Below are positions 17,201-51,028 of a DNA stretch of 64,000 nucleotides, piece after piece. Numbering within the stretch: the first letter of the stretch is position 1; every line of letters begins with the position of its first letter. The notes below the pieces were generated by a model, which was not told the origin of the DNA, searched no databases, and saw nothing but the letters and a program-made list of their open reading frames with translations. A program made the translations under genes and the position numbers. This DNA comes from Macrostomum hystrix (taxonomy: Eukaryota; Animalia; Platyhelminthes), in the NCBI GenBank assembly GCA_950097015.1, contig CATNEN010000003.1:8680001-8744000 (forward strand), in the 5' to 3' direction.

Positions 17201-19969
17201 CAGGGCACATTTACATCCATTCAGACCGAACTGTCATGTATTTTACCTCGCCTTGACGACGATGATGATGACACGGCAGACCGAGAACGAACTGACGATG
17301 TGCCACTAGTAGAAACTGCACGAGGAACTGTGAGATACTGCGGCTGCAGTTGCTGCTGCTGATCATGATGACTATGTTTCATTCCAAAGATTACACTCTA
17401 TTTGGTGAGAAGAAAAACTGAGAGCTTTGGTTCTCTCGATTTAGTTTTTTTTCTTTAGCGCGACTAAAATTAAAGGCGTCACATCGCGTAGAAATAAGAA
17501 GAAGTATTCCTAAAAGGGCAGGTAAAAAACGGGCAGCCAATGCAATACACGTACGTGAGCCAGCTGTATACATGTATGCCACAAGAGCTATAATATAGGA
17601 GGCCGCATTTGGCAGTCCCCTGCAAGCGGATCAATATTTGAACAGGGAAAGTTGTATGCACTGCAATTGCTCACTTGTATTATATTGTTCCACTGTAGCT
17701 CTGGTTTGGCTGTTAACATATACACCTCTCAGAAAGAAATTGAGACTTGTTGCTCATGCATCCGTTTACCCATACTACAGTTGAGCCTCTTTAACTCCAA
17801 TTATGCAATTCAATACGCTTAGGCAAAATACTACAAAAGCGCGCGCGGTAAACTTGGTGCGCAAATTTTACCTGAAATTTAAATTAAAAAAGCGCTCAGT
17901 TTATTGATTTTAACAAGGCAGGATCGAACGGCCGTTATGAATGAGAGTAATTAAACTTGAGAGGGCTGCATGGGTGAGTTTTAATTGACTGCTGCTAATT
18001 AGAGTGAAGACATTTTTAGATGGACCTATGAACTGACTTTGGCACTAGCCCTACATTAACAAATTGGATGTTAAGTGTTCTCACGGCATGGTTTTATGAG
18101 CTAAAATAGAGTTTCTTAAATTTTCTCCAATTCTCTGGAGAAGGAAATTTGTAGGTTTGTAAGGTATTTAAGGCTGAAGGAATGCTTACTTTTCTTTTAT
18201 AGCTCACAAAAACAAGGTCATTCCGGGCTACAACTCGAACCTTCCTCTGGATCAGATTCAGGGCACGAAAGTTATGATTCATTATTATACTCGTATATTT
18301 ACACACCACAGCTGCATTCAGTTAATTTTCGTACACGATTCTTAGATGGGAGAGAGAGCTGGTTAGAGCTTGGGTTTGGGTACGAGGGCATGCAAGATCC
18401 TGTAGTGTTCTTATAGTTCTGATCTATTAATCCCAATTAACAGTTCTAATCCGTGTGGGATTGGGGATTGGAGACTAATATAAATGGGAATTATAACTGG
18501 TGCAGATTATCGGGACTTCAAAATTGAGGTAAATATTAGAAACACTATATTTGAAGCAAAATTACAGGTAATTATTAATTTCAGTTTAAGTTAATCTTAG
18601 GATTTTATCAAGCCAACAATTAAAATTGTACTAAGCTGGGCTTCTAGAATACGCTCGTAGAATGAAATCATCACGTGTGTGATTCATAATGGAACGTACT
18701 CACTGACACTGTCTTGACCCTGCATGCTGATCACTGTGCTATCCTTTTGGAAATCATATGTGCATTATCGGAGGGTGGAGGGTCGGTTGCGGGGATTCGG
18801 TATTTGAGTGAATTGGGCAACAAGTGGGTACGTGGTAAGCACATTATTTATTAGTATTTGAGGAAATAGAATGAATCTTTTAAAGTAAAATATTGAAGAG
18901 AATGAACTATAACCCTATTAAAAATACGACAGCTGGCAAAAAAGCAAGATTGGCGCGTTCGAGAAAAGCGGTGCAAATACTCGTATATATAATATTTTAG
19001 CATATTTGCCTTAAGCATTGTTTATTCAATATCTTGCTTTAAAGATCTGAATTTGTCCAATCAGATAAAGAAAAACATTTAAAATTAAGAAAACCGTTAA
19101 CGTGGGAAATCGTACAGTTTATAGATCGGCAAATACAAAAATTAGGAGATTTACTCTAAGCGAAATCATTATTTAAAGCTTTTCAACAAGTTTTTGTGTG
19201 ACCCTGATTCTGTGAAGCGAAATTATTGATGTTAAGACAGGGATTTTGTTAGAACAGTGTGCTTTGCATTCCATAATTTAAATTCCCTCCTGACATGCCA
19301 CGGATGTGTGACACAGCCCTGTTGTTTTTTCTGCCCAAAATGTGGATGCCAGCTTGCATCTCAAGCTTAAAAATTGGATGCAAATATGAAAACCAGAATG
19401 CAACTTGCAACTAGGTCTAAATTAGCTAATTTGGATGAATTTGGATTAGCTAATTTGAAAGCCCAGCTTTCAAAATGTTGAAAGGGGGGGTCTGGTCAAG
19501 GCAAAGGGGTGTCTGGTCCAGCCAAGCCCCAGCCAAGGCCCCAGCAAGACCAAAACGGACCTCTGTTGTACGTGTATTCTAAATCGGTGCGAGTTTTCCC
19601 CAGAGACGACGACCCTAATTGGGATAGCCTTTATAAAATGTTCTATATTTAGAAATACACTACGGAGATCAAAAAAAGGTCATTCGGTTTTTTGCGCGCT
19701 ACTATTTACAGCCATAGACGTGTGCAAGAAATACACTAAGGAGATAAAAAATGTCTTTTCAGCTACGCATGCGCCTGCTGTAAGTAGTAGCTATAGCAGT
19801 GCAGAAACTGGCTAGTCAGTGAGTTGCAGCTAGAAGAAGCTGCAAATTTGGATTTCGGCTTTGGTTTTTGGCTTTGGATGCTTCAGTTTCTTCGAACTGA
19901 TCTCAACTGAAAAGCACTCTGGTACCATTTATTGACGTGTAACTTTCGCGAAAACATAGTTGGCGGATA

Positions 19970-20582
19970 GTGAAAGCGAGGGAGAGTGAAGAGAGGATCA
20001 AATCGAAGGAAGGGGAGGAAAGCAAAAGTAGGTTGACTGCACAGATTGTAGATTTGTACTGATGTGTTACTTTCGCGAAAAAATGTTTGGAGGATAGTAT
20101 ACAGGAGGAAAGTGAAAGCGAGGGAGAGTGAAGAGAGGATCAGGATCATCAGATCCTGAATCAGAATCCAGAATCCTGAATCCAGAATCATCAGATTAAA
20201 GGAAGGGGATCAGGAAAGCGAAGGTATAGGGGAGGAAGCTAGGACAGAGTGAAGGGAGGATATGCAGAGAGTCAGACACCACCACCTACCCAACCACCTG
20301 CACTCTGCATCCACCCACCCAAATTCGTACGACTGGTTCATTGTAATTATTAATTCATTGTACTGATCGATGTCTTACTTTCGAGAAAACATATTTGGAG
20401 GATAGTACAGGAGGAAAGTGAAAGCGAGGGAGAGTGAAGAGAGGATCATCAGATTAAAGGAAGGGGATCAGGAAAGCGAAGGTATAGGGGAGGAAGCTAG
20501 GACAGAGTGAAGGGAGGATATGAGAGTGAGACACCATGCACCACCTACCCAACCTGCACCTGCACTCTGCATCCACCCACCC
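19970..20582. repeat. Purine-rich direct repeats (two ~250-300-bp copies plus a partial third)
   Basis: gtgaaagcgagggagagtgaagagaggatca at ~19970, ~20112 and ~20418; ttaaaggaaggggatcaggaaagcgaaggtataggggagg occurs twice. Confidence 0.85.
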
Positions 20583-20729
20583 AACACCACACACCACACC
20601 ACACCACACACCACACCACACCACACACCACACCACACCACACACCACCCACCCAACACCACACACCACACCACACCACACACCACACCACACACCACAC
20701 CACACCACACACCACACCACACCACACCC
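20575..20729. repeat. (CACAC)n-type microsatellite
   Basis: Seen directly. Confidence 0.95.
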
Positions 20730-20750
20730 TGCAGCAGCACTCCAATTATA

Positions 20751-21350
20751 AGAGTTTATGGACTTAGAGAATTTACAATCAGTAAATTCTCGACCGTCCC
20801 AAGTTTTAAATAGTGTAGTGGGATCGGGGCGGGATAGAGGGAGCCAGTTAGTATATACTCTAAAGAAAGGTGCGCGCACTGTATTTTCCCGCCGTGTATA
20901 TGCGGCCTCGCTAGTTGACGTCAGCATATAGGATAGCTGCTACTCCACGGAAAAACCGCGCAGGCGCACCTTTCTTAAGAGTATAGACGCGGCTCGTGTG
21001 TGTATTCAAGTGGCAGCCATGTAAGTCTATGGGACACGCAAGTCAGTATATACTCTTAAGAAAGGTGCGCCTGCGCGGTTTTTCCGTGGAGTAGCAGCTT
21101 TGCTAAAAATAGAATCGCCCGGGGTTTCCCCGTTCAGCGGCAAGCTAGCAAGCCAGCCCGGCTATACTAGCCCCCATATGCCGACGACGTCGAGTAGCGA
21201 AAAAACAGCTCGCGCACCTTTCTTAAGAGTATATATATATACCTGCCTGTATGGCATTTACTACTCCACCAGCCACACCAACTAAAAGCTCTGGGGACGG
21301 TCGAAAATTTTATCACTGACATGATAAAATTCTCTAAGTCCGTAAACTCT
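20751..21350. repeat. Nested imperfect palindrome with a perfect 51-bp inverted repeat core
   Basis: 20935-20985 is the exact reverse complement of 21049-21099; outer arms 20852-20876/21211-21235 and ~20751-20807/~21283-21350. Confidence 0.9.
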
Positions 21351-21722
21351 AGTTTATATGGAATTACGGATGTCAGAGGGCTATATGCGATGGAGGTCGA
21401 TTCGTAAACTGACTTGGCTGTGAATAGACTCAAATGCTGGTATTTTCGCGAAAAGTGTATTTATTGTCTATGCATATTCAGGAATTAAAGTATTTTCGCA
21501 AAAATACTGATATGTTTCCAAAACAAAGGTAAGGGTAGTATTTTTGCAAAACGTTCCTGAACTACTACTCTCTATATTCGCTGAATAAATATTATCAGTC
21601 TGTTAGAAAAAAAAATTGTATTAGTGATCAAGATTTCACCATTTGCAGACAAACGTCATTAAAACTCGAACATGCGAAAGAAAATAAATATAAATAGCCA
21701 GATAACACACTATTTGATTGTT

Positions 21723-21796
21723 AGTGATCTGGCGTGCAGGTCTAAGGCATTTCTCTCTAATACCAGTGGCCCGGGTTCGAATCCCAGTCAGCCCTA
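21723..21796 (+). ncRNA. tRNA-like (Pol III A/B box) sequence, degenerate cloverleaf
   Basis: TGGCGTGCAGGTCTAAGGC (A-box/D-arm-like), GGGTTCGAATCCC (B box/T-arm), followed by T runs. Confidence 0.5.
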
Positions 21797-22504
21797 CGTT
21801 TTAATTTTTAATTAAAAAAGCAGCTAACATTTTACTATCAATGAAAATTAAAATTTTTATTTTTTATATTCGAATCCCCACTTTTTGTGGATCCCCATTA
21901 TTATTAACGTACTTTTGCTCAAATAGGGCAGTTACTTTCTTTTGATAATGCCTTTACTTTCATTTGGGACACATGTCTTTTAGCGAAAATTTTTCAGACG
22001 AAGTGTCTTGTCTTTTTACTGCCGTACTTATGCAAATAAATCTGAGATTGTGTGGCTACAGCAGCCGGTATATATTCGCGAAAGTACAAATGTGTCTTCA
22101 AACAATATTAAATGTATAGTTGCGCAATAGTACTTGAAGTAGTGCTGCTTGCACCTGAAGTAGTAAAGTATACTGCGAAAGTAATTGAATTAACATGGCT
22201 AGTCTATATACTTGTGATAGTTTAGATGGTATTTTCGCGAAATTAGACATAGACATTTCATCGATTAGTATCTGCGCAGTGGCAAAATTTTTTTTGCTGA
22301 ATAATATTCATACATGAATTTTCGCGAAAAAGTTTGGTCTATAGCCAGACCTAGAACCACAGTCCAGTACAGTCGCAAAAGTGAGCTATCTAAGACGGAG
22401 CGCGGTTAACAGATACTTTGTGACCGACTGACTGACTGACTGACCGAGCCGAGCGATCAACCACATTTACGAGTTAATTTCTACGCCTCGACTTCAAGTT
22501 TGAA

Positions 22505-22767
22505 ATGTCAGCATTTCGTGGCCGTGGAAAGAAGGCTCGTGTGGATGCCAGCATTGCTACACCGGATGCTAATGGTCTACGCCAGACTATGATCGTGGAC
22601 TACTTTAGATCTCAGCAGTCAACCGATCGTCCTACTGGCAACTCAATTAGACCGAGTGGGCAAGCAGCATCGGCATCATTCGCAGCACTGGCAGGAACGG
22701 CTGGTCGGGCATCGGCTGCCTTCAATGTTCCCCGCCGTGCAGCAGTAGTACAGCAGCAACAGCAACC

Positions 22768-22804
<37 letters not shown>

Positions 22805-25161
22805 ACTGTTATTACAACCGCAGTTCAGAAGCGTCGACGTGTCCGATCGACTCTACGCAAGCGGACGCGTGTAGTTGTCGACTTGGATGCTTCGTCTAGC
22901 AATTCATCGTCGTCTGATGCTGAAGACACTGGCGTTGGATCTCTAGTAGCCATGCGACAGCCTCTGGTTATTGCTGCCCAACCAATTTGTGGCGCCGGCG
23001 ACCATGCTGATCGCATAGAGTCCACGCCTAAAGTGCTATCATCTGAAGATGAATCAGCGGACGACTTGCTAGCAGACGACGTACAGCTGGAGATTGTGGA
23101 CGAGTGGACGAGCAATACAGACAATGTAGAGTCGAATACTGCCCCTGTTTTGACGGCTTCTAATAGTTCAGCCTTGTCATCGCAGCTAGTCGATGATAAG
23201 TACAAAACAGAGGTGGCAGAATTATTGCGCGTAAATGGCGAGTCTACTATTCCTAAAAATAGTGCCGCACTTGGTGCCTGTCCGACTTCGCCAGATTATG
23301 CGCCTCGCTCTACACCGGCAATGTCTGTCATCGAGAATGGGACAATATCCGATGATGATGAACCAGCTCTCGCAGTATTTTCTCCAGCGTATGTCGACGC
23401 TTTTGAATCAACAGCGCAACAGTCGGGACGACGGCAGCAATCGCAGCAGCAGCATCATCAGCGAGATCAACAACCGCAGCAGCGGCAACAGCAGCAGCAG
23501 CAAGTTGGTGGCGTGGCATTTGCTCCGATAGCCGATGAATATGCGTTGTGTCGTTCGACATCACCACTTCTACGGCTATGTCCTCGAGCTCCAATTACCG
23601 ACTACGCCTCTTTAACAGCAGAGGGCAGGTCGGTTCTTATGACTAGAAGGACGCTACATCTTATAGAGATTGCATTCATCTCGAGCGATGTGGAAAAATT
23701 CAAGGCTTTTCTAGAAGATGAATTGGTAGCTCCATGTGCACAGTTTGCCATCGGCGCAACATCATGTATTCAGGTTGACATGCTGACCAGCGAAGAAATC
23801 CGAGCGCGTCGTCAGCAGAAATACAACATGTCAATCCGTGAATGTTTAGGAGCTCCGAATCATCCCAATGGTTTGCTGATGTTCCTGAACCTGCGCCAAC
23901 CAGAAGATGGTTACACTGTTTACTGCGGACTGCATGCCCTTTTGATGGAATCTGCGGAAGCTTCGGCCTACCTGCATCCTACAATGTGTAGAATGACAGT
24001 GTCTGGTGTACGCAGTGCGTCAAGTGCAATTAAGCTAGTTACCAGTACGGACGAGTTTCCAGCTCTTTTCCGCGTTTCTACTCAAGAGTGCAGCTTGCTG
24101 ACCAAGGCCTTTTGCTGGGTTGCTGCTCATGAGACGTCATCTACTGAGCCTTTGCTAGATAGTGGCTTCATGTTCGAACACTTTCGTGTCAGACAAGAGC
24201 TCAGCGATTACTTTAAGGTGACTCAGATGAAACGCGTAATAGCAACAGAGGTGCTAGCTGGTTGCCAAAACTGTCGCCCTACTGCCGCTGCCGCCGCCGC
24301 CGCTGCTGATGATGCTGCAACAGCCGACTATGCGAGGACGACCTTGCCTACTCAGCTGGAGGTATGCAAAATATTATAATACATGACATTTTTTAGCACA
24401 CGTACGAGTATTGATCATTGAATTTTTGCTGTTGTTTTAATTCAAATAATTATTACTTTTGGACAATTAATTAATTAATTGTATGCGAACCTACCTAACA
24501 ACACAACACCATCCAACAGGTCTCTGCTGCTGCTGATGTTGCTGCTTCCGCTGCTACTGCTGTTCAAGTATTTGATGCCGCCGTCGCTCATGTTCCCCGG
24601 CTGATCGCCGCCGCCACCAACGTGTGCCCAACTGTAAAGGCTGTGTGCAGCGCGTTGCAATTGCCAACTGGTGTCGTCTATCTATATGGCCCGTCTGGCG
24701 TTGGGAAGACCCACTCTGTGCAAAGCCATCTCGGTTCTACGAAAGTGCTGAATATCCAGGTGCAGAAGCGGTCTAACACGTTTATGTTTGACAAGCTCTG
24801 CGAGACTATACACACTGCCATGTTTATTGACGAGCTACGCCCGCAACTGTTTGATGACACATCTGAAGTCATGTGCACACTACTTCGTTTGGTCAATGGA
24901 GACACTTTTGAAGTCAATGCTAAATACAAGGCTATTCGACACGTCTCTTGGCTCAATCGACTGTTAGTGCTTGCTGGGCATGCTCCGGTCAGTGCGTATT
25001 CGATGGACTTTCAGCGCCGATTAGAACCGACACCTGATGGGCACAAGCGTCCGGTAGTTGCCATCTTCATTGGTCATTCCCTCAGTGCCGACTACCAATG
25101 CGATGGACAATGCCACCCAATACGCAATGTGTTTGGCGATCACCCGGACCGGCGAGTATGA
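22505..25161 (+). CDS. Rep-like protein with C-terminal superfamily 3 helicase; exons 22505-24361 and 24520-25161 (~832 aa)
   Basis: Donor GAG|GTATGC at 24361/24362, CTAAC branch-like site, acceptor AACAG|G at 24519/24520; the join is in frame. Walker A GPSGVGKT, Walker B MFIDE, B' LLRLVNGDTFEVNAKYK, Arg-finger-like FQRRL. Confidence 0.85.
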
Positions 25162-25616
25162 GCGACAAGACGGTGCTGTTAGCAGGTTTTTTTTACACCA
25201 AACTGCCTGCATGCTGCTATTTTATCGACTATATTTTTACTCGGTCCTTCAGTCAGTCTTTCAGCTGTTTTTTTATATTTTTTACTGTTTCATACTGTTT
25301 TTGTATGCAATTTTATAATTAGTCATAAAAATAAAATGAATTTATATGCTCAGTTTTGAGCTTTTATTGTTGTGAAGTAGGTAATTGCTACTTCTGTTGC
25401 AAAAAAATCATATTTCTTGCTAATTGTAGTCAATTGACTGATTAATGAAGCCCAACACGAATACAATAAATGTATTGAGCGTTTGCATGCATAAAAATAC
25501 AAACAATAGTTACGATAATCAGTAAATTTATAATATAACTGCATAATGAATCCATAAAATTCATTTATAGGTGTTATCGCGAAAAAAAATAACGACTTCT
25601 AAACCGAAAGTAAATA

Positions 25617-27720
25617 CGGTATTTTAGCGAAAATACTGATATGTTCTCAAAACGAAGGTAAAGAGCAGTATTTTTGCAAAAGTTCTTAAAGTAGTGTGCA
25701 TGGCTACATCTTATGGTATTTTCGCTAAAATACTGCTATGCTATTAAACAAAGGTAGTTGGCGGTATTTTTGCAAAAGTTATTAAAGTAGGTAGTGTGCG
25801 TGGCTACATCTTATGGTATTTTCGCTAAAATACTGCTATGCTATTAAACAAAGGTAGTTGGCGGTATTTTTGCAAAAGTTATTAAAGTAGGTAGTGTGCA
25901 TGGCTACATCTTATGGTATTTTCGCTAAAATACTGCTATGCTATTAAACAAAGGTAGTTGGCGGTATTGTTGCAAAAGTTATTAAAGTAGGTAGTGTGCG
26001 TGGCTACATCTTATGGTATTTTCGCTAAAATACTGCTATGCTATTAAACAAAGGTAGTTGGCGGTATTTTTGCAAAAGTTATTAAAGTAGGTAGTGTGCA
26101 TGGTTACATCTTATGGTATTTTCGCTAAAATACTGCTATGCTATTAAACAAAGGTAGTTGGCGGTATTTTTGCAAAAGTTATTAAATTAGGTAGTGTGCG
26201 TGGCTACATCTTTGGTATTTTCGCGAAAATACTGCTATGCTATTAAACAAAGGTAGTTGGCGGTATTTTTGCAAAAGTTATTAAAGTAGTGTGCATGGCT
26301 ACATATTATGGTATTTTCGCGAAAATACTGCTATGCTTTAAACAAAGGTAGTTGGCGGTATTTTTGCAAAAGTTCTTAAAGTAGTGTGCATGATTACATC
26401 TTTGGTATTTTCGCGAAAATACTGCTATGCTATTAAACAAAGGTAGTTGGCGGTATTTTTGCAAAAGTTCTTAAAGTAGGTTATATGCGTGGCTATATCT
26501 TATGGTATTTTCGCGAAAAGACTGCTATGCTATTAAACAAAGGTAGTTGGCGGTATTTTTGCAAAAGTTCTTAAAGTAGTGTGCATGATTACATCTTTGG
26601 TATTTTCGCGAAAATACTGCTATGCTATTAAACAAAGGTAGTTGGCGGTATTTTTGCAAAAGTTCTTAAAGTAGTGTGCATGATTACATCTTTGGTATTT
26701 TCGCGAAAATACTGCTATGCTATTAAACAAAGGTAGTTGGCGGTATTTTTGCAAAAGTTATTAAAGTAGTGTGCATGGCTACATATTATGGTATTTTCGC
26801 GAAAATACTGCTATGCTTTAAACAAAGGTAGTTGGCGGTATTTTTGCAAAAGTTCTTAAAGTAGTGTGCATGATTACATCTTTGGTATTTTCGCGAAAAT
26901 ACTGCTATGCTATTAAACAAAGGTAGTTGGCGGTATTTTTGCAAAAGTTCTTAAAGTAGTGTGCATGATTACATCTTTGGTATTTTCGCGAAAATACTGC
27001 TATGCTATTAAACAAAGGTAGTTGGCGGTATTTTTGCAAAAGTTCTTAAAGTAGTGTGCATGATTACATCTTTGGTATTTTCGCGAAAATACTGCTATGC
27101 TATTAAACAAAGGTAGTTGGCGGTATTTTTGCAAAAGTTCTTAAAGTAGTGTGCATGATTACATCTTTGGTATTTTCGCGAAAATACTGCTATGCTATTA
27201 AACAAAGGTAGTTGGCGGTATTTTTGCAAAAGTTATTAAAGTAGTGTGCATGGCTACATATTATGGTATTTTCGCGAAAATACTGCTATGCTTTAAACAA
27301 AGGTAGTTGGCGGTATTTTTGCAAAAGTTCTTAAAGTAGTGTGCATGACTACATCTTATGGTATTTTCGCGAAAATACTGCTATGCTATTAAACAAAGGT
27401 AGTTGGCGGTATTTTTGCAAAAGTTATTAAATTAGGTAGTGTGCGTGGCTACATCTTTGGTATTTTCGCGAAAATACTGCTATGCTATTAAACAAAGGTA
27501 GTTGGCGGTATTTTTGCAAAAGTTCTTAAAGTAGTGTGCATGATTACATCTTTGGTATTTTCGCGAAAATACTGCTATGCTATTAAACAAAGGTAGTTGG
27601 CGGTATTTTTGCAAAAGTTCTTAAAGTATTGTGCATGGCCACATCTTATGATATTATCGCGAATGCAGATACGCGGCGGTTGAAGACAATAAGAAGACAA
27701 TATTTTTGCGAAAGTACTTT
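25617..27720. repeat. 95-100-bp tandem array (~21 copies) with internal palindromes
   Basis: Unit ggtattttcgcgaaaatactgctatgctattaaacaaaggtagttggcggtatttttgcaaaagtt(c/a)ttaaagtagtgtgcatg...; no unique spacers. Confidence 0.95.
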
Positions 27721-27974
27721 AAGTATTCATGATGACTATATCTAATGGTAATCAATAACCAAATATGACTTGACTTCATTATATTTTATTATTATTCATG
27801 CCGCGAATACAACTTGCAACAGGTTCACTCATGTATTTTTGCTTGAGCGAATTAATTGGGTTAAATAAATAGCTGGCATTAATTAAACGGCGAACAGGAA
27901 ACTACAATTAGCTGTATTAGCTGTATTAAGTCTACCTAAAACTAGTGCTGCTACTGCTGCTGCTGCTGCTGCTG

Positions 27975-28394
27975 TTACTGCTCAATTCGATATCGGCGGC
28001 TCCGGAGCAACTCTCGCAGTCTAGCCCTTTGCTGTACGCCGCGCCAGTAGTCCAGGCCGTGTAGAATGTGCTGCAGCTCCAAACATGTGTCCTCCAGCAG
28101 GCCTAGCAGCTCGGCCAAGTCGAAGGCCTCGTTCTCTGTTAGGCAGGTCACCTCCAGGATGGTCTCGTAGCCCGCAGCTGTCTTGTGTTGTAGCAGCCAG
28201 TCCAGGAGGCTCTTCATCAGGGTGTGCAGCTGGGTGACGTTCAGCTCAGCAGTCGGGCAGTGGCGCTGCAGGCAGGTTAGCTGCTCCAATCGTCCTCGGT
28301 AAGTCAGGAACGGGGCCAGACAGGCGATGTCGCATCTGGCCAGGAGTGCCACGGTGGCCGGCGAGCCGAACAGCGCCACAGAATGCGTATTCAT
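27975..28394 (-). CDS. 139-aa Leu-rich helical protein of unknown function (possible death-fold)
   Basis: GC-rich ATG-initiated ORF in AT-rich surroundings between two arrays. Confidence 0.6.
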   Translation of the reverse strand: MNTHSVALFGSPATVALLARCDIACLAPFLTYRGRLEQLTCLQRHCPTAELNVTQLHTLMKSLLDWLLQHKTAAGYETILEVTCLTENEAFDLAELLGLLEDTCLELQHILHGLDYWRGVQQRARLRELLRSRRYRIEQ

Positions 28395-28719
28395 CGTGAT
28401 TTCTACACAACAAACAATGTCGTGAGTGCAACAGCAGCGCGTCTAACACTAGCAGAAGTAGAATTAGAATAGGAAGCAGAGTTCTAAATGGAAAGTAAAT
28501 ACAGTATTTTCGCGAAGGTAAGGGCAGTATTTTTGCAAAAGTAGCGTGACTACATCTTATGGTATTTTCGCAAATGCAGATACGTATTCTCAGACAAAGT
28601 GACTTTTTACCATAGACAAATTTAGTGTATTTCTGTAAATTGCCAAAACTCACGAATGAGTTTTTTCGCGAAAAGACAATATGTACTATATTGAATACTT
28701 GTAAATGAAAAATAGTGTC

Positions 28720-29625
28720 TGTTTTTGCGAAAATACTGCTATCCTATTAAACAAAGGTAGTTGGCGGTATTTTTGCAAAAGTCATTAAAGTAGGTTATAT
28801 GCGTGGCTATATCTTAAGGTATTTTCGCGAAAATACTGCTATCCTATTAAACAAAGGTAGTTGGCGGTATTTTTGCAAAAGTTATTAAAGTAGTGTGCAT
28901 GGCTACATCTTAAGGTATTTTCGCGAAAATACTGCTATGCTATTAAACAAAGGTAGTTGGCGGTATTTTTGCAAAAGTTATTAATTAAGTAGGTTATATG
29001 CGTGGCTATATCTTAAGGTATTTTCGCGAAAATACTGCTATCCTATTAAACAAAGGTAGTTGGCGGTATTTTTGCAAAAGTCATTAAAGTAGGTTATATG
29101 CGTGGCTATATCTTAAGGTATTTTCGCGAAAATACTGCTATGCTATTAAACAAAGGTAGTTGGCGGTATTTTTGCAAAAGTTATTAAAGTAGTGTGCATG
29201 GCTACATCTTAAGGTATTTTCGCGAAAATACTGCTATGCTATTAAACAAAGGTAGTTGGCGGTATTTTTGCAAAAGTTATTAATTAAGTAGGTTATATGC
29301 GTGGCTATATCTTAAGGTATTTTCGCGAAAATACTGCTATCCTATTAAACAAAGGTAGTTGGCGGTATTTTTGCAAAAGTCATTAAAGTAGGTTATATGC
29401 GTGGCTATATCTTAAGGTATTTTCGCGAAAATACTGCTATGCTATTAAACAAAGGTAGTTGGCGGTATTTTTGCAAAAGTTATTAAAGTAGTGGGCATGG
29501 CTACATCTTATGGTATTTGCGCGAAAATACTGCTATGCTATTAAACAAAGGTAGTTGGCGGTATTTTTGCAAAAGTTCTTAAAGTAGTGTGCATGGTTAC
29601 ATATTATGGTATTTTCGCGAATGTA
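28720..29625. repeat. Second array of the same unit (~9 copies, 96-104 bp, ~300-bp trimer periodicity)
   Basis: Same unit and orientation as 25617-27720. Confidence 0.95.
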
Positions 29626-30022
29626 GATACGTATTCTCAGACAAAGTGACTTGTACTTTTTTACCATCGACAAATTTAGTATATTTCTGCTAATTGTCAA
29701 TAATCACGAATGATTTTTTCGTGTATCTTCGGCTTTTAAGAAAATGAGAATAGTTTAATCTTAGTTTAATCAGATGATAATCAAATGATTTCATTTGTTA
29801 ATTTATTTAATTACTAACGAAATAATCACAGTGTTGACAATCATTAGCATCTTAACAATATATAAGAGAGCAACAAACAGAACATATGAGATTCTCGGTT
29901 GTAAAGGGACGGGTATTAGTGGGGGTATCACAATTGACACAATTGATAATTGATAATAGTTTGGCAAATCAGACAATCAGCACATATAAAGTCAGGTGAC
30001 ACGACTGGGACAATATGAGCAT

Positions 30023-33000
30023 TCAGATGTCCAGTCTAGTTCTCGAACTGATCAGGCGCCCAGATCGCGTCCTGTATTCCGTTCGACGAACCACGAGTAG
30101 CTCAGAATCCGAGCTGGTCTCATTGTCATTGCTGACGTGCTGTTGTTCACCATCATCACCTTCTTCGTCGATATCGTCGTGAACGTTGCCTTGTCCAGCC
30201 GATGCTCCAAACATCGGCGGTTGACTAAGACTGCGTCGTCTAGACGATGTAGACGAAATAGGCGATGGTGTTGCTGAATCGATGGCCGGCTTTGTCGACT
30301 CGGTGTTGTCCGTTGTTGAACATCTAGGACTAACCGTAGCGGGTCGCATTGTCGACATTCGAGGTCGCTTCTTGTCAGTGGCCTTGCAAATGGACGACCG
30401 TCGAGTGCGTCGCTTGCGTGTGCGTTGACTATGTGGCATCACAATGTCATCAGCAGGTAGAGGAGATGCAGCCGATGAATTGGTTGCGTCCAGATCAACG
30501 CTACAGGCGGCAGAGCGACGACGCTTCGTGTCGTTTTCGGCTGTTGGATGTCGTTGATGTCGACGATCAAGTGGCCGATTGTGACAGAATGTCTCGAAGC
30601 ATCCTCTGACGTCGTCGGCGACCATCAGATTGGCCTGCTGTTTGGCCAGGCGTCCATACGCATTCACGACACAGTTGCGCGATGTGTCGTACAGAGGCAC
30701 CAGCTGGTCTAGCTTGTCGGGATGCGCGTGCACATAGGCCGACAGTACATTTCGACGACCATCGCCCATGCGATAGGGCCGATCGATGACCAACTCGGCG
30801 CCCTGCTTGACAAGCGTGCTGAAACTTGTCGAGTCACGCTGCTTGCCACGATGCGTAGGAAACAGCAGACATTTGCCTGGCCTGACATGGATGTTGCACT
30901 CGGCGAAGTATGGCAATAGAAAGTTGTCTATCCATTGCAGTAGACATTCGCCGACTTTGCGTGGCGCAGTCCAGCTTGCACCTTTACCACGACCGCCCTT
31001 TTTGTGTGCCACTTCGGTAGGCGGCAGGACTGTGACAATGGTGGAGGACGTTGATACGCCGCTATTGAGTGCAGCATCCAAATAGCAACGCCGGATCGCG
31101 ACCCAAGGACGTAGTCGATTGGCATGGACAATTGCTGCACAGAAGAAGGCCAGTTCACGCGTGATCGGCATAATAAATGTATTCCATTTGCCGACGACGT
31201 TGGCCATTCGACGTGCACATTGTCCAATGCGACCCCAGTAGCCCTTCACGGGTAGATGAGACCACGAATGTTTGGCGACCATATCAATCAGGCAGTCTAG
31301 CCGGTTGTGAATGATGCGCCATTCGTCAGCGGTCAGGAACTTATCCGTGTAGGACAGCTGGCGTTCGTCGTCGCGCAGGTGATAGATATTCTCTTGCCGC
31401 TGACGAATCAATCCAATGCAAGCCTGTACATGTTAAAGGGTTATGAAAGAGAAAGTACATGCAGTAGCTTCTACAATTGTTCATGATATATCAACTAACA
31501 TAGTATACAATATGCGACACAACAACACTGCTCACCATGATTGATTCGATGCGGCTAGTCAACAGACCAGATACTGCAGTCTGATGATAGAGAATACCAT
31601 CTTTGCGCGGGTCAGGACAGGCAGGCAATTCTGACGCGGCCTTGACAATGTCGGCATGCACGTTGGCAAACAATCCATCTGGTGGCGAGGTCAATTGGAA
31701 CGCGTTCATAACACTAGGAGCACCGAAGTCGTTGTTGGCTGCTAGAAACTTCTTCGCGCCGCTCAATATGTTATGAAGCTCGTTCATTCGCTGTCCAACA
31801 GTCGATGGTTTCCAGATATGGCGCTTCACCATCTCGTCCAAATCGAATTGGATGCGCGCTGGATTGATGAACCACATCTCGACTGTGACATTGATTGCGT
31901 GTAGGAGACGACTAGTTGTAGCATGATAGTTCCGCTGGATTGCTTTCCTACGGCTAACATGCGATGCGTTCTCTTCTACACAGCAATGACCCTTGAACCA
32001 GATGTCGCCGACATTGTCTAGTTGCTTGTACATGTGTTCAGATGCAACGTGGTAGTCTGGGCCGTCGAAAACAACAAGCCGAGACTTCTTGTGCCTCCGT
32101 TGCAATACAAGCTCCTCTTCACTGACAGAATCATCAGTATTTTCCACGTCAGATTTAGAGGTCTGAGTCTCTGCTTGTCGCTGACTGACAGCATTGGTGA
32201 CTCCGACCGGAACATAGTCTGACGTATACTGGAGAATTGCTTCTGTCAGATTGACCAGATTCTGCAAGCTAGTACACACGCGCGGATGCTCAGCGTTGTG
32301 GGCTTTCTGCAGAATCTCGTTGAGGCCGGCCGCATTCAGACGCAGTCCATTGATAAACTCTGTTTGACAGGAAAGTTATAAATATTTGTTGATTCTTTTT
32401 TTGTCTTTATGTGTAAATTTAAAAATGTAAAGGCATGTACAACAATATTTTAGACCACTTACTGATCGCTGCCACATTGTCGTTGGCATTATCGAATTCT
32501 GGCATCGTACTCGTTTCGTTTTGCAGTCGCTCGATGTCGTGACTGACAATATCGGCCGTGTAAGATGGTCCGGCACGATCGAAACTAGCCAACACCGGTG
32601 CTACTAAAGTAGACGGTGTGACAGACGATGCACTGTTGATAATGCGTACAGCATTGGACTGTCCAGCAGAAGACGATCCCGCAGAAGACGCTAACACGAC
32701 AATAGGCGGCTCAATGTTTGCACCCGCGTCTATCGACTCAGACGAAGAATCGTCGCTGTCACTTGACGAACGGGTTGCATTTGCTGCCTCTGTAATTGCC
32801 GGTTTACGCTTGCATGACCTGGCAATGTGTTTACTGAGCTGCTGAACACATTTGCCACAGTATTGACAATAAGACAAAGATGCATCGGATCCATCCCGAC
32901 GTAACCGGATGATCTTCCATACGGTCTTTGCCTTGACGTCATACGATGCAGTCACTGCGGGTCGTCGAACCTCTGGGATCGTGCTCCAATCAAAAGCCGA

Positions 33001-33084
33001 AATGAAGTCCGAATGGTTTCTAATAAAGTGCCGAAATACATTCGTCTTCCGAATTGAAGCTTTGCAGACTGGGCACGTATCCAT
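30023..33084 (-). CDS. Tyrosine recombinase with N-terminal zinc fingers; exons 33084-32463, 32359-31536 and 31423-30023 (~948 aa)
   Basis: Donors GTAAGT (32462) and GTGAGC (31535) and CAG acceptors keep frame. Zn-finger-like CPVC-x12-H-x4-H and CQYC-x9-H-x4-C. YR-ordered motifs NRLRP (R), HKK (K), LLFPT, GDGRR (R), LYDTS, VVNAYG (Y). Confidence 0.75.
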
Positions 33085-33239
33085 TTCGCTGGTTTGATGC
33101 TGTTCCAAAGTGCTTATGACAGAAGAACGTTTACACAGATTTGTAAGCGAGCGCGCTCGGCTTCTGACTTAAGCTGCTATCGTGACCCGTACGACAGTTT
33201 AATCACATAAACTATCATTCAAGGTTGGTCTATGGCGAA

Positions 33240-34932
33240 AAAGCATAATATCGAACTCATAATATATTTAACGTTGCTATATTGTCTACTCATAGTAGAG
33301 TAGGTAGTTTCGAACAGAAAATGAACATAAACACGAATAATTATTTGATTTCTGAATGTCTATCTATATGTTGAAAAAGCGCTTAAATAAGTGTTGATTA
33401 TTCCAGAGGTATTTTCGCGAAAGTACATATGTATTCTCAAACAAAGGTTAATGCAGTCTTTTTGCGAAAATACTTTTGTGCTAATATGATTACTCTTTCT
33501 AGTGGTATTTTCGCGAAAAGACATTAGTGTCCCATATAAAAGTAAAAGAATTATCAAAAGAAGGTAAACGCCGTAAACGTTAATAATAATGGGGGTTCAC
33601 AAAAAGTAGTTTGGTAGTAATTAGTAGTAAATTATTAGCAGATTTTTTAAATTGAGAAAAATGCGTAGTGCCGACTGGGATTCGAACCCGAGCCACTGCT
33701 ACTAAAAAAGAATGCTTTAGACCTGCATGCCAGATCACTTGCAAATGATTGGTGTGTTATCTGGTTATTTATATTGATGAGTCAGTTTTCGCGAAAAAAA
33801 AACTGTAAAGCATAATATCGAACTCATAATATATTTAACGTTGCTATATTGTCTACTCATAGTAGAGTAGGTAGTTTCGAACAGAAAATGAACATAAACA
33901 CGAATAATTATTTGATTTCTGAATGTCTATCTATATGTTGAAAAAGCGCTTAAATAAGTGTTGATTATTTCAGAGGTATTTTCGCGAAAGTACATATATA
34001 TTCTCAAACAAAGGTTGATGCAGTCTTTTTACGAAAATACTTTTGTGTTAATATGATTACTGTTTCTAGTGGTATTTTCGCGAAAAGACATGTGTCCCAT
34101 ATAAAAGTAAAGGCATTATCAAAAGAAGGTAAATGCCGTAAACGTTAATATTAATGGGGGTTCACAAAAAGTAGTTTGGTAGTAATTAGTAGTAAATTAT
34201 TAGCAGATTTTTTAAATTGAGAAAAATGCGTAGTGCCGACTGGGATTCGAACCCGAGCCACTGCTACTAAAAAGAATGCTTTAGACCTGCATGCCAGATC
34301 ACTTGCAAATGATTGGTGTGTTATCTGGTTATTTATATTGATGAGTCAGTTTTCGCGAAAAAAAAACTGTAAAGCATAATATCGAACTCATAATATATTT
34401 AACGTTGCTATATTGTCTACTCATAGTAGAGTAGGTAGTTTCGAACAGAAAATGAACATAAACACGAATAATTATTTGATTTCTGAATGTCTATCTATAT
34501 GTTGAAAAAGCGCTTAAATAAGTGTTGATTATTTCAGAGGTATTTTCGCGAAAGTACATATATATTCTCAAACAAAGGTTGATGCAGTCTTTTTACGAAA
34601 ATACTTTTGTGTTAATATGATTACTGTTTCTAGTGGTATTTTCGCGAAAAGACATGTGTCCCATATAAAAGTAAAGGCATTATCAAAAGAAGGTAAATGC
34701 CGTAAACGTTAATATTAATGGGGGTTCACAAAAAGTAGTTTGGTAGTAATTAGTAGTAAATTATTAGCAGATTTTTTAAATTGAGAAAAATGCGTAGTGC
34801 CGACTGGGATTCGAACCCGAGCCACTGCTACTAAAAAGAATGCTTTAGACCTGCATGCCAGATCACTTGCAAATGATTGGTGTGTTATCTGGTTATTTAT
34901 ATTGATGAGTCACTTTTCGCGAAAAAAACTGT
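33240..34932. repeat. Three ~565-bp tandem copies, each with a minus-strand tRNA-like sequence (33667-33739, 34232-34303, 34796-34867)
   Basis: aaagcataatatcgaactc recurs at ~33240, ~33807 and ~34371; each copy contains gggattcgaacccg. Confidence 0.95.
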
Positions 34933-35454
34933 AACGAAAATACGGATACGTATTTCATAATTCAGTCTAACAGAACAATAAGATTTATTGAGGGAATAGA
35001 GATAGTACTGCTGATTATTACTATTATTGTTAGTATTTTCGCGAAATACGGATACGTATTCAAACGAAGGTAGAACAGTATTTTTTGCAAAAGCACTTTA
35101 AGTACTTTAGTTACATTAGATGATGTTTTCGCAAAATGCTTAAAGTGAAGTAGCAATGTTAATACAGGGCAAGGTATTTTCGCGAAAGTACAATGAAATA
35201 TGGTGCATGAAGGACACAGTGATATATATTAGCACTTTCGCAAACACGACTACATGCTCCGCAGTGCTCGATTGCAAAAAGACAAGCTTAGCTGTTCTAA
35301 TTATAGAAATACACTACGGAGATCAAAAAAAAGGTCATTTGGTATATGCGTCCGTATTTTCGCGAAATGACCACATGAGCTGGTCTATTTTTAGAAATAC
35401 ACTAAGGAGATCAAAAAAAAAGGTCATTCAGTCTTTTTGCGCGACGCATGCCTA

Positions 35455-35563
35455 TTTGGCAGCGGATAATTTGGCAGCGGATAATTTGGCAGCGGATAAT
35501 TTGGTAGTGGATAATTTGGCAGCGGATAATTTGGCAGCGGATAATTTGGCAGCGGATAATTTG
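35455..35563. repeat. 15-bp tandem repeat, 7 copies
   Basis: ttggcagcggataat units. Confidence 0.95.
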
Positions 35564-37113
35564 GTACTATAGCATACATATGCTAGTGCCATAGACGGTT
35601 GGGTCTGGACTGCAGCCTTGAGTAGCGGATTTCCGACTTTTGGCCACTTGTACATAGGGGAATCCACAGTCAAAGTAAGGTTTCTCGGACAAAATCTTCC
35701 GACTGTTGGGGTCTGCTTGCCAAATTATCCGATGCATATTTTGTTGGGATGAATAATTAATTATCTTATTGTTTCATTAGTCACATAGCTAAAGTAAGTG
35801 GCGTAACGCATAAGTATGGTTCCATTCATTAAACTATTTGGAATTCAAATTTATGCTAGGCCTAAAAGAAAAAAATTTACTACATTTTTGCTAGAAAATG
35901 ACTTGCATGCATCTTGATCTAATAAAATGCAGATGCACAAGTTGTATCCAGTGCCAAAAAGTTGGTGCAAATCCAAATTTCAGGGTGTAAATTACACTAC
36001 ACCCTATTTGCATAAAAAACTCTATAACTTAAGGATGTGTGTCTGGATGTGTGTCTAGTGTGACATTCAATTTAAGTGTGTTGACGATGTTAGCGAGATT
36101 ATATATATATACACACTTGAACTGCATTTACCATTTACTAATACACATTATAATTTCATACACAAAGTCAGTTTTTGTGAAATTTGAGAAATGTGTGAGA
36201 CATATTATTAGTGATGTATTTTCATTCATATATGTCTATATAATGGTATAACTATTTTTAAAGTTCACTTAAATATGACTGGTCTTCTTCAATATTCTAA
36301 ATGACTAAAGATCTGAAGTGTCAATCATTTATAGATTTTTTATAAATAGCAGCAAAAAGTGCATAAAAGCTCATTAATGTTTGGTTTTAAAGAGGCATCA
36401 TTTTGTTAATAATATTTAACCCTAATTCATTAAGTGTCTATTCTATTCAGTATTCTAATTTAGAGCAAGACATTTTAAGACTTAAATTTCTTGAGTTCCC
36501 TATTGTAATTTTTGAATTATTGGGCCTAGTCTTTAGTCTAGACTCTGGATCATGTTGGGTCACCAAACTTGGGTGGCTGGTAAACACCAGAAAAAAAATT
36601 AAATGCTAAAGTGCATGCCAAAATGTTTATTTTGTGTACTTAAAAACTAAAATAAATTAAAAAAGATGATAAATTGGAGGTGAAACAAAGCAAATACATT
36701 TTTATTGTCTTCCGCCTTATTTACTTGTTTCTAGCCTAGTCTAGGCCTATTAGTTGTTTGTGCTAAATATGCTAACATATATTTCACCAACCTTGGGCAC
36801 TAATTTTCTTTGCCAACAGCCAACTGTGCATGCCAAATTGCGCAGGCAACACCAATGGCAATGCATTTTATATGATAGTAGCTTTTTTTGCCCGTTGTTT
36901 TTGGGGCAGAAATTTAAAGCAAAGCAGTAAGCAATTCACGTCTCTGTATTAACTTTATAGTGAAGGTCACCATTTATTTATTTACTGCATTAATGAAAAG
37001 TGAAGAGTTTTTTAAAGGTCGTTTTAAGTAAAAAAGAAGTAAAAGTTTGTCCAAACAGCCCCCTCTTGATTACTTCTTTAGAAACATGTCTCTTAGCCAC
37101 TCCTCTATACAGT

Positions 37114-37540: not shown

Positions 37541-38789
37541 TCACCTCAAGGCCTGGGGATACACCACATTCTTTGTTCTTCCCCTTGGTGCGAAAATGAA
37601 TAGGCCAGCTGGAGTTCCAACACGGGAGCAGGCGACATAAAGCTGCCCATGCGAGAAGCAAGGAGTCTCCAGGTTGATGCCAGCCACCTTCAGCGACTGT
37701 CCTTGAGCCTTGTTAATAGTCATCGCAAAGCACACTCTCACAGGAAACTGCAGTCGCTTAAACTGAAATGGCAGGTCCGTAGGGATAATTGGAATCCGGG
37801 GAACAAACACAGACTCTCCTCTGCCAGATCCAGTCATTATCGTGGCCTCAATCACATGTGGGAAGAGCCGCCTGACTATCAGTCTGGTGCCGTTACACAG
37901 CCTTGGCGCATTCAGGTTGCGGAGGAGCATAATTGGTGCCCCAACTTTCAGCTGCAAGTTGTGCGATGGAGTTCTAGGAGGATCTAGAGAGTTCAGAAAC
38001 TCAACAGGATACTCCACAGCGGTGTCATCAGTCAACGTTGTATCAATTGACTTGTAGGTGAAAACTGCACCTGGCAACTCCTGAAGCAGTTGGTAGTTAA
38101 TTTCGTTGGCGGCATCATTTCTAGGACACAGAATTGCCCTCTCTGACAGCTAGTCAACGCCAGCCTCTCTCTTTCTTCTATCCCAGGCTGGCTGGAGAGA
38201 ATATCGACCGGAGAGCCCTGCGCACTGGGACGTCACCGCACTCACCGCACTCAGTCTCAGTGCTGCTTGGGGGCCAGTAGACAGTCTAGGGGTTTGGGCT
38301 GTGTACATTCACGGCTTGAAATACAATGTACAGTCTGGGGCTTTGGCGCCCGGGGAAGGGAGGGGGTGGCTGTAATAAAATTTGGCCCGCAGAGTGGCGG
38401 AGGGGAGTTGGGGTGGCTGTCCTCGGAAAACAAAAAGTGACTCACTTTGAGATGATGCAGCTTTGCTCTGGATTGAGTAGAGATGTTCAAAATTGATGGC
38501 ATTGTTGGAAAACATGTAAAGTGTAAGTGGATCAAATTTGGAGAAAATCTGACAAAGTGGGGCGACGATATGTCGAATTGAGTGATTTTTTGACGATTTT
38601 TGAGCAGTTTTTTGCACTTTTGAGCAGGAAGAAAATGATTTTTCGGGAATTTGAGTAGCCTATTGCACTCAGCATAGGTGGTTTAAGGTATGTGCAAAGT
38701 TTGGTGCGATTTGGTTGAGCGGTTTCGGCGTCTATAAAGACAAAAGGTTGCACACACACGGACAGAGTTTTCACTTTTATATATATAGA
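37541..38789 (-). mobile_element. Non-autonomous Helitron with PIF1-helicase C-terminal remnant (37541-38156)
   Basis: LKVGAPIMLLRNL, CNGTRL, QFPVRVCFAMTINKAQGQS, FSHGQLYVACSRV; upstream D*LSERAILCPRN has a stop; 5' end A|TCTATATATATAAAAG at 38789. 3' CTAG end not found. Confidence 0.85.
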
Positions 38790-40817
38790 TAAAACTAGGC
38801 CCCTAATTTGCATACAAACTGTATTTTAACTACATCTTTGATCTTTCAAATAGATGCTGTGCAGTTTAGTATCAGGGTGATTTGTGGCAATATTGCAGTT
38901 AGTTTTGCAGAGTTATTTTATGTTAAAATTCTTGACTTCATAAAAAAAGTTTATTTTAGCATTGGATATGGCCAAAGATAAATGACATGGCATGACAATA
39001 GTTGGTTCTAATTCAAATTCTGGTTTTGGAAATAGACAAATAATGTGGATCATTACTAGTTGGATAAAATTTAGACTATATAATGCCTTTATGCACAAAT
39101 TCAAACAACAAAATAGTCATTACTAACTGCAATATTGACTAATCTGCTACCATTCTATGCTTTTTTGTCAAGCTGACAAGCTCCTAGTATACTACTGTAG
39201 TAAGAAGTACTTTTTGTTGTATGTTAGGCTTATCAATGTTATATTCTATATAATAGGCAGGCATATGACCTGCATATCAAAGATAAATATAGATACAGGA
39301 GTGCAACATTACTTTTAGGTATCAATTCAACTTATTGGATACAAGTATTTTGTGGTTGCAGTTATGTATCTATTTCATTGTTTTAATGTTCCCAAGATAC
39401 AAAATAGATTACATAGCTACATTTGCCCTCAGATTTGTAGATATATGGCAGTAAATTGTAATATATACAAGATTGTTTTTAGTGTTAGAAATTACCATTG
39501 TAAATGCACATTTACCTATTTACATGTTTTGTAGATCATTGAAAAGACTTTCTTTGTCGTAACTAGTGGTATCCAATATATATTTGATATATAGTATATT
39601 ATATTGGTTGTAAAAGGACCCACTTCAATTCGTTTTTCTTTTATTGTTAAAAAGTACCATTATATATTTAATTATAAGTAAGTATATAATGGTATTCTAT
39701 AAATTATGTTCTTATAGAATAAATGTAAAATAGAATAAATTTTAAACAACAAACTAAAACAATATTATTATTACATAACAATATTAAACTATAATTTATA
39801 AATAAAAGAAGGAAAATAAAAAAGTATGCTATATAAACAAGTCCTTACAGGATAAATGTTAAAATCAACAAAATAAAATTAAGAAAAAATTTAAATTAAT
39901 AAGAACCCCTAGATATTGAGCATATCCAGCTAAGACCACCAAATTTTACCTGGATTTCTCTTGGGATATTCTGGGAGTCCATATACTGTCTCTTGTCAAA
40001 AAATATCCTAAAGCCTCAATTAAATTGCATAGACTATCTCCTAAAATTACATTCAACAAGTGGCAGAATCTTGCATAAAATAAAAAAAGAAATCTAACCA
40101 CTTCCTAGTCCTTATTGCATCAACTTTGCATCAGCCTCATTCTTACAGTGCTCCTCCTCTTCTAACTGTCTTTTCTTGGAAAATGGCCATACTGTGGCAC
40201 TGGTTGAAACTGTCATTGATGTTATGTTTTTCTAAATAGATGCCTCATTGGTGTATATATGTACCGTGAATGAAAGTGCATAAAAATTTTAGGAAAAGTT
40301 AGAAAACTAACTCTTCTCCTTTTTCAACCATGCTTGGGACCAGCTTTTTCGGAGTTAATGTCATGTGTCAAGTGATTGGTGGTTACTGCAAAAAATGACC
40401 AAATTGGAGGCACGGATTGAGAACAAACAAAGAAACAAATAAACTATTTGAAGGAGAAACAATGGCCCAAGTCTTAAGTGGCAGCAACAAGTTAGCAAAT
40501 TGCCTTTTATTGTGGTAATATATTCAGCTGTATAAGCTATATCAGAATAAGTTATATTTGCAATTATCCAGAGAATTGCCAGGATAATCAGCAGGATACA
40601 CTAAATCCGGATATGGGTTTAAATCCGAAAAAAGTAGATCCATATCCTTTAAATTAGGATTTGATTAGTAAGTTTTTATCATATATGCCATAAAGTATAT
40701 TCAGTTGCGTTAAACTAGACTTTTTAAACGCATATTCAACCAAGATCAGTTATCGTTTTTTTCAGACATTTAAATACTTTTAAGATTAATTTACAACTTC
40801 CTAAAGCAAGTGCATCA

Positions 40818-50302: not shown

Positions 50303-50401
50303 AAATATCAATACATTTGAGAGCAGCAATAAACTAAGTCACGTACACCAACGCATTTTCAGCGAAGCATTTCAATTCTAATCCCCTATTCGACTCCAAT
50401 A

Positions 50402-51028
50402 ATGTCCTCGATATCCGGTGACTCACCAGCGCCAGTTAAATGGGCCCAGCGCAAGGACAAACTGTACCTGACCATCTGTCTGGAGGATGTGCAGAACAAA
50501 CAAATGGATTTAACTAGCAATCGTCTGACATTCAACGGCATTGGCGGCACCGATAAAAAGCCGCATTCTGTCACCATCGATTTCTACGCCGAGGTGAATC
50601 CAGACGACAGTCTCCAGATGGCCAACGATCGCGAGATTGTCATGAGCATTCGCAAGAAAGAATCCGGCCCCTATTGGCCCAGACTAACTGCCGACACTAT
50701 CAAACGGCATTGGTTGAAGACCGATTTTAATCGTTGGGTGGACGAAGACGAGGGTCCCGCTGAAAGTGACGGCTTCGGAGGCGGTTTCGGCGGAGACGAC
50801 GATCGATTCGAATCGATGATGTCCCAGATGGGTAGCGGCTTCGGCGGAGGCGGCGGCGGCGGGATGGACTTCATGAAAGACGGCGACGAAGAGGACTACG
50901 GAGATGACGCAGATCTTGAGGACTTCGACGATCAGGCAGCTGAGGACGGAACGAAGGGCGGCGATGAGGGAACGAACGGAGAAGAAAAAGGAGAAGAAGG
51001 GGCAGAGAAGGCGCCGGCCTCGGAGTGA
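50402..51028 (+). CDS. PTGES3: p23 Hsp90 co-chaperone / prostaglandin E synthase 3 family
   Basis: VKWAQRKDKLYLTI, GPYWPRLT, WLKTDFNRWVDED, Gly/Met-rich and acidic tail. Confidence 0.92.
   Translation: MSSISGDSPAPVKWAQRKDKLYLTICLEDVQNKQMDLTSNRLTFNGIGGTDKKPHSVTIDFYAEVNPDDSLQMANDREIVMSIRKKESGPYWPRLTADTIKRHWLKTDFNRWVDEDEGPAESDGFGGGFGGDDDRFESMMSQMGSGFGGGGGGGMDFMKDGDEEDYGDDADLEDFDDQAAEDGTKGGDEGTNGEEKGEEGAEKAPASE

Follow-up and report, generated by a model that had tools for sequence, protein, structure and literature searches.

To our knowledge, eukaryotic DNA transposons come in only a few kinds, and neither of the kinds that use a tyrosine recombinase, the Cryptons and the Starships, has a replication gene. 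The Starships of fungi are large elements that carry a divergent tyrosine recombinase gene with introns close to one of their ends, and the yeast 2-micron plasmid combines a recombinase that has a non-His residue in its active site with repeat arrays, few genes and the use of host polymerases, is episomal and has no known helicase. Cryptons are recombinase DNA transposons, in some cases with an extra gene, for which the available part of the account by Kojima and Jurka (2011, PMC3212892) describes end repeats of 4-6 nt and neither long direct repeats nor terminal inverted repeats, and proposes excision as a circle followed by reinsertion. Polinton-like viruses are integrated elements of 14-40 kb with a tyrosine recombinase and a helicase, some of them in animals (Barth et al. 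2024, PMC11296320; PMC12220804; PMC11131425). A recombinase together with an SF3 primase-helicase module is described for them (PMC11296320), excision and reinsertion have likewise been proposed for the recombinase-bearing members (PMC12220804), and capsid-bearing viruses are known to pair a recombinase with a helicase (PMC11296320, PMC11131425, PMC12220804, PMC11071296). Finally, Rep-type SF3 helicase domains, near-terminal direct repeats and the lack of a capsid are features found among Replitrons, Helitrons and the CRESS/pCRESS Reps, the Replitrons being presented in the accessible text as carrying HUH without a helicase (Craig 2023, PMC10288648).

The window analysed here, a stretch of 64,000 nucleotides from the flatworm Macrostomum hystrix (GCA_950097015.1, contig CATNEN010000003.1, positions 8,680,001 to 8,744,000), contains a predicted tyrosine recombinase gene that an earlier note had singled out. 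That note overlooked the repeated unit of about 16 kb in which the gene lies together with a helicase gene, and the main interest lies in this whole element, which is possibly a new class, beyond the coordinates of the recombinase. The element shares with the Starships the traits listed above, and with the 2-micron plasmid the non-His site residue, the repeat arrays, the small number of genes and, presumably, the use of host polymerases; it differs from the former in its animal host, its helicase gene, its long end repeats and the absence of a DUF3435 match, and from the latter in being chromosomal and in having a helicase. No description of a capsid-less animal element with a recombinase and an SF3 helicase was found in open papers; Repbase, subscription journals and supplements might list it.

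Structure and relatives of the predicted recombinase gene

Three open reading frames on the minus strand, proposed earlier to be spliced in frame into about 948 aa, were joined by an ORF-joining script through GT-AG introns to 948 codons that run from 33084 to 30023. Exon 1 (32463..33084) encodes two zinc-finger patterns (aa 4-24 and 73-91) and a Ser-rich linker, exon 2 (31536..32359) a linker and a helical region that is a candidate core-binding domain, and exon 3 (30023..31423) the predicted catalytic domain (aa 483-765) and a basic, low-complexity tail. Intron 1 (32360..32462, 103 nt, phase 1) has its GT at 32462 and its AG at 32360, and intron 2 (31424..31535, 112 nt, phase 0) has them at 31535 and 31424. 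The reading frame alone could not fix these junctions, because 24 in-frame GT-AG combinations exist. Contigs of public run X4 omit both introns exactly, with joints at 32359-32463 (103 nt, CT..AC, the shorter side spanning 34 letters) and 31422-31535 (112 nt, CT..AC, 255 letters), and so bear out the predicted junctions 32463/32359 and 31536/31423. The stretch was found in ten public runs, with at least half of its words in eight of these; among the four runs aligned, the joints were seen in X4, X9 and X10 gave pieces without a junction, and X3 gave unspliced DNA. X4 is a run of unrecorded kind, so that an intronless DNA copy could in principle be the source of its joints. Together with a Macrostomum lignano protein that matches all three exons, these contigs confirm the three-exon gene. 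A second X4 contig departs from exon 2 at the identical boundary into at least 255 letters unlike the window, which suggests that exon 1 differs in another copy.

The search of 1.84 billion representatives returned four matches, two of which were M. lignano UniRef entries; once cluster members are counted, seven M. lignano entries are available (P0001, P0002, P0005-P0009). They carry the source names Ras-GEF or C2H2 proteins, which are misnomers for members of this recombinase family. The three exons match the 1084-aa entry P0008 in their own order, with identities of 34% (over 151 aa), 33% (over 203 aa) and 44%, respectively. Both zinc fingers described previously were found (C4/C7/H19/H24 and C73/C76/H86/C91), as were the basic Ser/Arg tail and the motifs WKPSTVG (390), MGDGRR (701), LYDTS (726) and AYG (737), and all of these recur in P0008. 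More distant, partial relatives are of environmental origin (P0003 from Logan, P0004 and P0010 from JGI). Word-index protein searches with the single recombinase sequence gave no match, although relatives exist. Moreover, Pfam, PHROGs and NCBIfam yielded no family for any exon or relative, PDB sequence searches no significant match, scans of viral and metagenome contigs no relative of either the recombinase or the helicase, and phage tblastn chance matches only.

The neighbours of the element in the window are animal genes and transposons according to Pfam. Host genes lie at 5512-6294, 10514-12785, 40728-42302 and 50333-51028, among them exons of the MYCBPAP family, and the host ORFs at these places include what we take to be WD-repeat, p23-like and lectin-like proteins. 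A Tc1/mariner-type transposase ORF (Pfam DDE_3) and a similar fragment occupy 54939-56030 and 57398-58060, and a Pif1 helicase fragment (Pfam Pif1_2B) at 37541-38149 is probably a Helitron remnant. The splicing, the host genes on both sides and the M. lignano relatives rule out bacterial contamination, against which the introns had already been held to argue.

Fold, candidate active site and likely activity of the predicted recombinase

The fold was assessed on an AlphaFold2 model built from eight aligned sequences (pLDDT 70, pTM 0.66); a single-sequence model (pLDDT 34) was not used. When the alignment-aided model was compared with 48,161 chains by VIA-align, the top 15 were tyrosine recombinases or topoisomerase IB (Z 8.1-5.3, rmsd 3.4-4.1, 113-147 residues aligned). 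A best Z of 8.1 is close to what models that lack a clear match typically reach and is unremarkable alone; the evidence for the fold lies in the unbroken filling of the top ranks by one superfamily. Foldseek placed the Staphylococcus aureus integrase, XerD, Cre, XerA and XerH in the top PDB rows (best E 0.008, TM about 0.3), and in the viral library integrases ranked on top (best E 0.006, TM about 0.3), with nudivirus integrases and VLF-1 among the weak matches; every fold E-value was at least 0.001. In the Atlas features, integrase clusters were among the matches at 0.94, at a recognition slightly below the reliable level. In profile searches, Pfam was without a match, and a profile of 73 XerD-like proteins scored 25.5, compared with a maximum of 22.1 in 40 shuffles and 13.5 for the reversed sequence. 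Foldseek, VIA-align, the XerD-like profile and the Atlas features agree, and support the prediction that the gene product is a tyrosine recombinase. The suggested likeness of the exon-2 helices to a core-binding domain was not confirmed, the profile score of 18.2 being equalled by 1 of 25 shuffles.

The candidate catalytic residues are all encoded in exon 3 on the minus strand: R585 (31117), K623 (31003), R705 (30757) and Y738 (30658). The XerD profile alignment spans only aa 665-739 and sets R705 on R247, T729 on H270 and Y738 on Y279, which places Arg II and the Tyr nucleophile in register with tyrosine recombinases. R585 was not aligned to XerD R148 and K623 lies three residues off the XerD Lys position K172, so these two identifications rest on conservation and order rather than on the profile alignment. 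Most VIA-align alignments stop at model residue 213, which is G702, opposite Cre 289, the His of HxxR (PMC2943603), and the helices bearing R705-Y738 lie outside the superposed part. In the sequences that cover each site, the window included, R585 is kept in 4/4, K623 in 5/5, R705 in 4/4 and Y738 in 4/4, and the invariant residues are R585, P588, K623, D703, R705, R706, T729, S730 and Y738.

Both His positions are replaced, as had been claimed, by G702 (30766) at the His II position of HxxR and by T729 (30685) at the second, His/Trp III position. The XerD-like controls retain these His residues in 71 of 73 and 73 of 73 sequences, respectively. Within the recombinase family, position 702 varies as G/S/M/T and position 729 is T in every sequence that covers it. 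The replacements are thus real and family-wide, and are less unusual than had been implied, because such changes are partly tolerated in Cre, where Tyr and Lys are reported as the only strict requirements, H289G retains moderate activity and small residues at W315 give weak enzymes (PMC2943603); by themselves they are modest news. His II is absent from topoisomerase IB in the same account (PMC2943603), and SNJ2-type integrases are described as having Gly/Ala in place of Glu/Asp and Ala/Val in the His/Trp III position (PMC5861418). The present enzyme differs at three site positions together, His II, His/Trp III and a Pro at the Glu/Asp position.

These three non-canonical positions could also mark a catalytically dead or host-domesticated DNA-binding protein with a recombinase fold, situated inside an amplified segment, and the dead recombinase folds MrpR and Ndc10 (Z 5.1) were among the VIA-align matches. 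The many copies and the sharp left edge of the unit speak against such a protein. Moreover, Tyr and the second Arg, both kept here, are lost in the domesticated Crypton genes covered by the available part of PMC3212892, and we regard this explanation as very improbable. Variants between copies or individuals, of which 37 coding changes were drawn from 40 of 72 variant places, included 16 synonymous changes (expected 24%, p = 0.007, with transition bias ignored and runs mixed) and no stop changes, and 7 of the 11 in aa 316-765 were synonymous. The recombinase is likely active, with R585, K623, R705 and Y738 as its presumed catalytic residues.

The repeated unit and its second gene

The inferred element spans 19474..35453, with a left end placed within a few bases and a right end that possibly reaches as far as about 35,740. 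In run X3 a single contig, identical in sequence and at depth 71, covers the host flank 17800-19501, compared with depths of 838 (19511-19591), 764 (19705-19880) and 816 (31224-32685, the main recombinase contig) within the element. The ratio of about 11 applies to the left end and the recombinase gene only, and depth does not equal copy number. The left end is placed near 19,474 because the alignment of a further contig begins at 19475 and its preceding letters differ, and the right end near 35,453 because a loose end in X2 runs from the end of the right repeat into sequence like that from 19,778 onward. The host flank is not covered by X1, X2 and X5, which are therefore uninformative on this insertion. 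The evidence for further copies consists of the depth step and one other left flank in public-run contigs, among which no second full copy, empty site or circle was seen. The unit is likely a mobile element.

Near-terminal direct repeats lie on the plus strand at 19639..19776, as two related subunits, and at 35293..35453, past the end of which the X2 loose end continues. Positions 19639-19698 of the left repeat have counterparts at 35293-35343 and 35381-35443, with 89-90% identity over 51-63 nt. At 60-160 nt the end repeats are long for a recombinase core, and the ends of the element yielded no pair of inverted sites separated by a 6-8-nt spacer. The repeat core 19639-19688 reaches a depth of 6593 in X3, far above the rest of the element, and has several other continuations, so that it must also occur in other repeats, which are perhaps non-autonomous derivatives. 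The inferred left end is abutted by a perfect inverted repeat of 9 bp whose loop measures 3 nt (19454-19474). In X1 and X2, the host repeat that ends at 19432 is followed directly by sequence that the window has at about 35,742, which looks like a split caused by insertion of the element plus a small inverted-repeat piece (35,454-35,740). The two halves of this host repeat (19324-19432 and 35742-36005), contiguous in X1 and X2 contigs, have 55-60% direct similarity to each other.

Internally, a nested imperfect palindrome of 600 nt (20751..21350) contains a 24-nt site four times, its orientation alternating from copy to copy, and folds with z = -21.9 (0 of 20 shuffles). The palindrome lacks a perfect centre; it is a candidate origin, or else a fold-back insert unrelated to the element. 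Two tandem arrays share a 95-nt unit that carries the palindromic TTTTCGCGAAAA motif, present 21 times at 25618..27663 and nine times at 28722..29621. All 40 matches of the TTTCGCGAAA motif in the window fall inside the element, eight of them outside the arrays and on both sides of the helicase gene. Upstream of the recombinase, a 564-nt unit occurs three times (33240..34934), and an inverted relative of it (71%) lies upstream of the helicase gene (21684-21990). By eye, a stretch like a tRNA T-arm is seen upstream of both large genes (33665-33700, 34230-34265, 34795-34830 and 21760-21795); ARAGORN called 0 tRNA genes and Rfam no family at threshold.

The second gene (22505..25161, plus strand) converges with the recombinase gene and is predicted to encode 832 aa in two exons (22505-24361 and 24520-25161) separated by a predicted GT-AG intron of 158 nt. 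A low-complexity N-terminus is followed by an unassigned middle domain of about 250 aa and a C-terminal SF3 helicase domain with Walker A at aa 676 and Walker B at aa 720; the SF3 set of Walker A, Walker B, B', C and Arg finger was found within about 110 aa. Motif C has a His, where SF3 proteins usually have Asn. In HHalign, the helicase domain matched seven Rep proteins, collected from a seed at E 8 that was picked for its annotation, with a probability of 91%, E 1e-6 and 99 columns, and with a score of 52 compared with a maximum of 20 in 30 shuffles. The Pfam entries RNA_helicase and DUF5906 remained below cut-off, and DnaA, the best phage match, was dropped. The gene is accordingly predicted to encode a Rep-type SF3 helicase. 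The middle domain gave no HUH match above chance when the single query was compared with the seven Reps (24 of 30 shuffles equally high), single-sequence searches of Pfam, PDB and Atlas found no HUH nuclease in the gene, and Atlas returned weak, unrelated matches for the middle domain. Two 2-kb circular records filed under Microviridae (L091, L092) encode HUH-SF3 Rep proteins and carry a nonanucleotide motif.

This pairing of a Rep-type SF3 domain with a middle domain devoid of an HUH match raises the option that the recombinase replaces the missing HUH nuclease of a Rep, nicking or resolving the 600-nt palindrome so that helicase-driven replication starts or finishes, besides or instead of integrating. 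The SF3 helicases of papilloma- and polyomaviruses are not known to need a nick, which counts against it. The large palindrome does adjoin the helicase gene, but its lack of a perfect centre and its possible origin as a separate insert lessen its value, as does the weakness of an HUH test made with one query sequence and seven Reps. A swap of the nicking nuclease has been raised (PMC11296320), and topoisomerase IB likewise lacks His II (PMC2943603); overall, we give this option a low probability. With the HUH Rep elements the present one shares the helicase domain, near-terminal direct repeats and lack of a capsid, and it differs from them in having a recombinase and no detected HUH nuclease.

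Alternatively, the unit could be a Crypton-like transposon with the recombinase alone as its driver and the helicase gene as cargo or as a separate nested element. Cryptons bear introns, and the absence of a helicase relative from the viral contigs also suits this option. Conversely, the TTTCGCGAAA motif and a related 300-nt block are common to the upstream regions of both genes, and no match to a Crypton-type Pfam family was found; the fold comparison did return Ndc10. The element resembles Cryptons in being a eukaryotic DNA element with a tyrosine recombinase, no terminal inverted repeats and a proposed circular intermediate, but its long direct repeats near both ends contrast with the 4-6 nt given in PMC3212892, and it is set apart by the lost HxxR His, the N-terminal zinc fingers, the SF3 helicase gene and a size of about 16 kb. 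We consider a Crypton-like element unlikely.

Recombinase and helicase together are typical of polinton-like viruses (PMC11296320, PMC11131425, PMC12220804), and with the weak fold matches to nudivirus integrases and VLF-1 they would fit a virus or satellite of a virus, whether polinton-like or not, that has integrated and whose capsid genes were lost or are borrowed. Highly divergent capsids are reported to escape first searches (PMC11296320). In the element, however, only three genes are present, the third being an ORF of 139 aa (27975..28394, minus strand) without a family match, and the largest gaps of 1,277 and 1,154 nt hold no ORF over 157 aa. Family searches of the element found no capsid gene, major or minor, and no packaging ATPase, and no gap is long enough for a typical capsid gene; terminal inverted repeats, a primase and a polymerase were likewise not detected, and neither the recombinase nor the helicase has a relative in the viral contigs scanned. 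The spliceosomal introns and the Rep-type helicase domain further distinguish the element from polinton-like viruses. We regard this viral reading as quite improbable. A retroelement of the DIRS/Ngaro type was ruled out, as there is neither a reverse transcriptase ORF nor space for one.

Proposed mode of mobility and its meaning

With confidence a little above even, we favour the reading that the spliced predicted recombinase is the integrase of a capsid-less, self-copying element of about 16 kb, which would be excised as a circle, copied with the aid of its predicted SF3 helicase and reinserted. The recombinase, helped by its zinc fingers, would bind sites in or near the end repeats, excise the element through a putative circular intermediate and subsequently reinsert it. 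The predicted helicase would provide host polymerases with an opened origin and thereby cause copy gain, with the palindrome or the motif arrays possibly serving as the origin or as protein-binding sites, and the helicase gene would travel with the recombinase. More tentatively, at somewhat less than an even chance, the element may represent a new class of animal DNA transposon, capsid-less, intron-bearing, self-replicating, integrative and active in Macrostomum-like flatworms, in which an unclassified tyrosine recombinase lacking the usual His residues is combined with a Rep-type SF3 helicase devoid of a nuclease, the recombinase possibly doing HUH-type nicking.

The element is taken as intact and, from the contigs of X4, a run of unrecorded kind, as expressed. 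As the laboratory flatworm M. lignano has relatives of the recombinase, tests for circles, target sites and activity are feasible. The enzyme offers a natural test of how far the active site of a recombinase can drift, and is a possible new site-specific tool. If the favoured reading is true, a capsid-less element with a recombinase and an SF3 helicase would stand between transposons, plasmids and polinton-like viruses.
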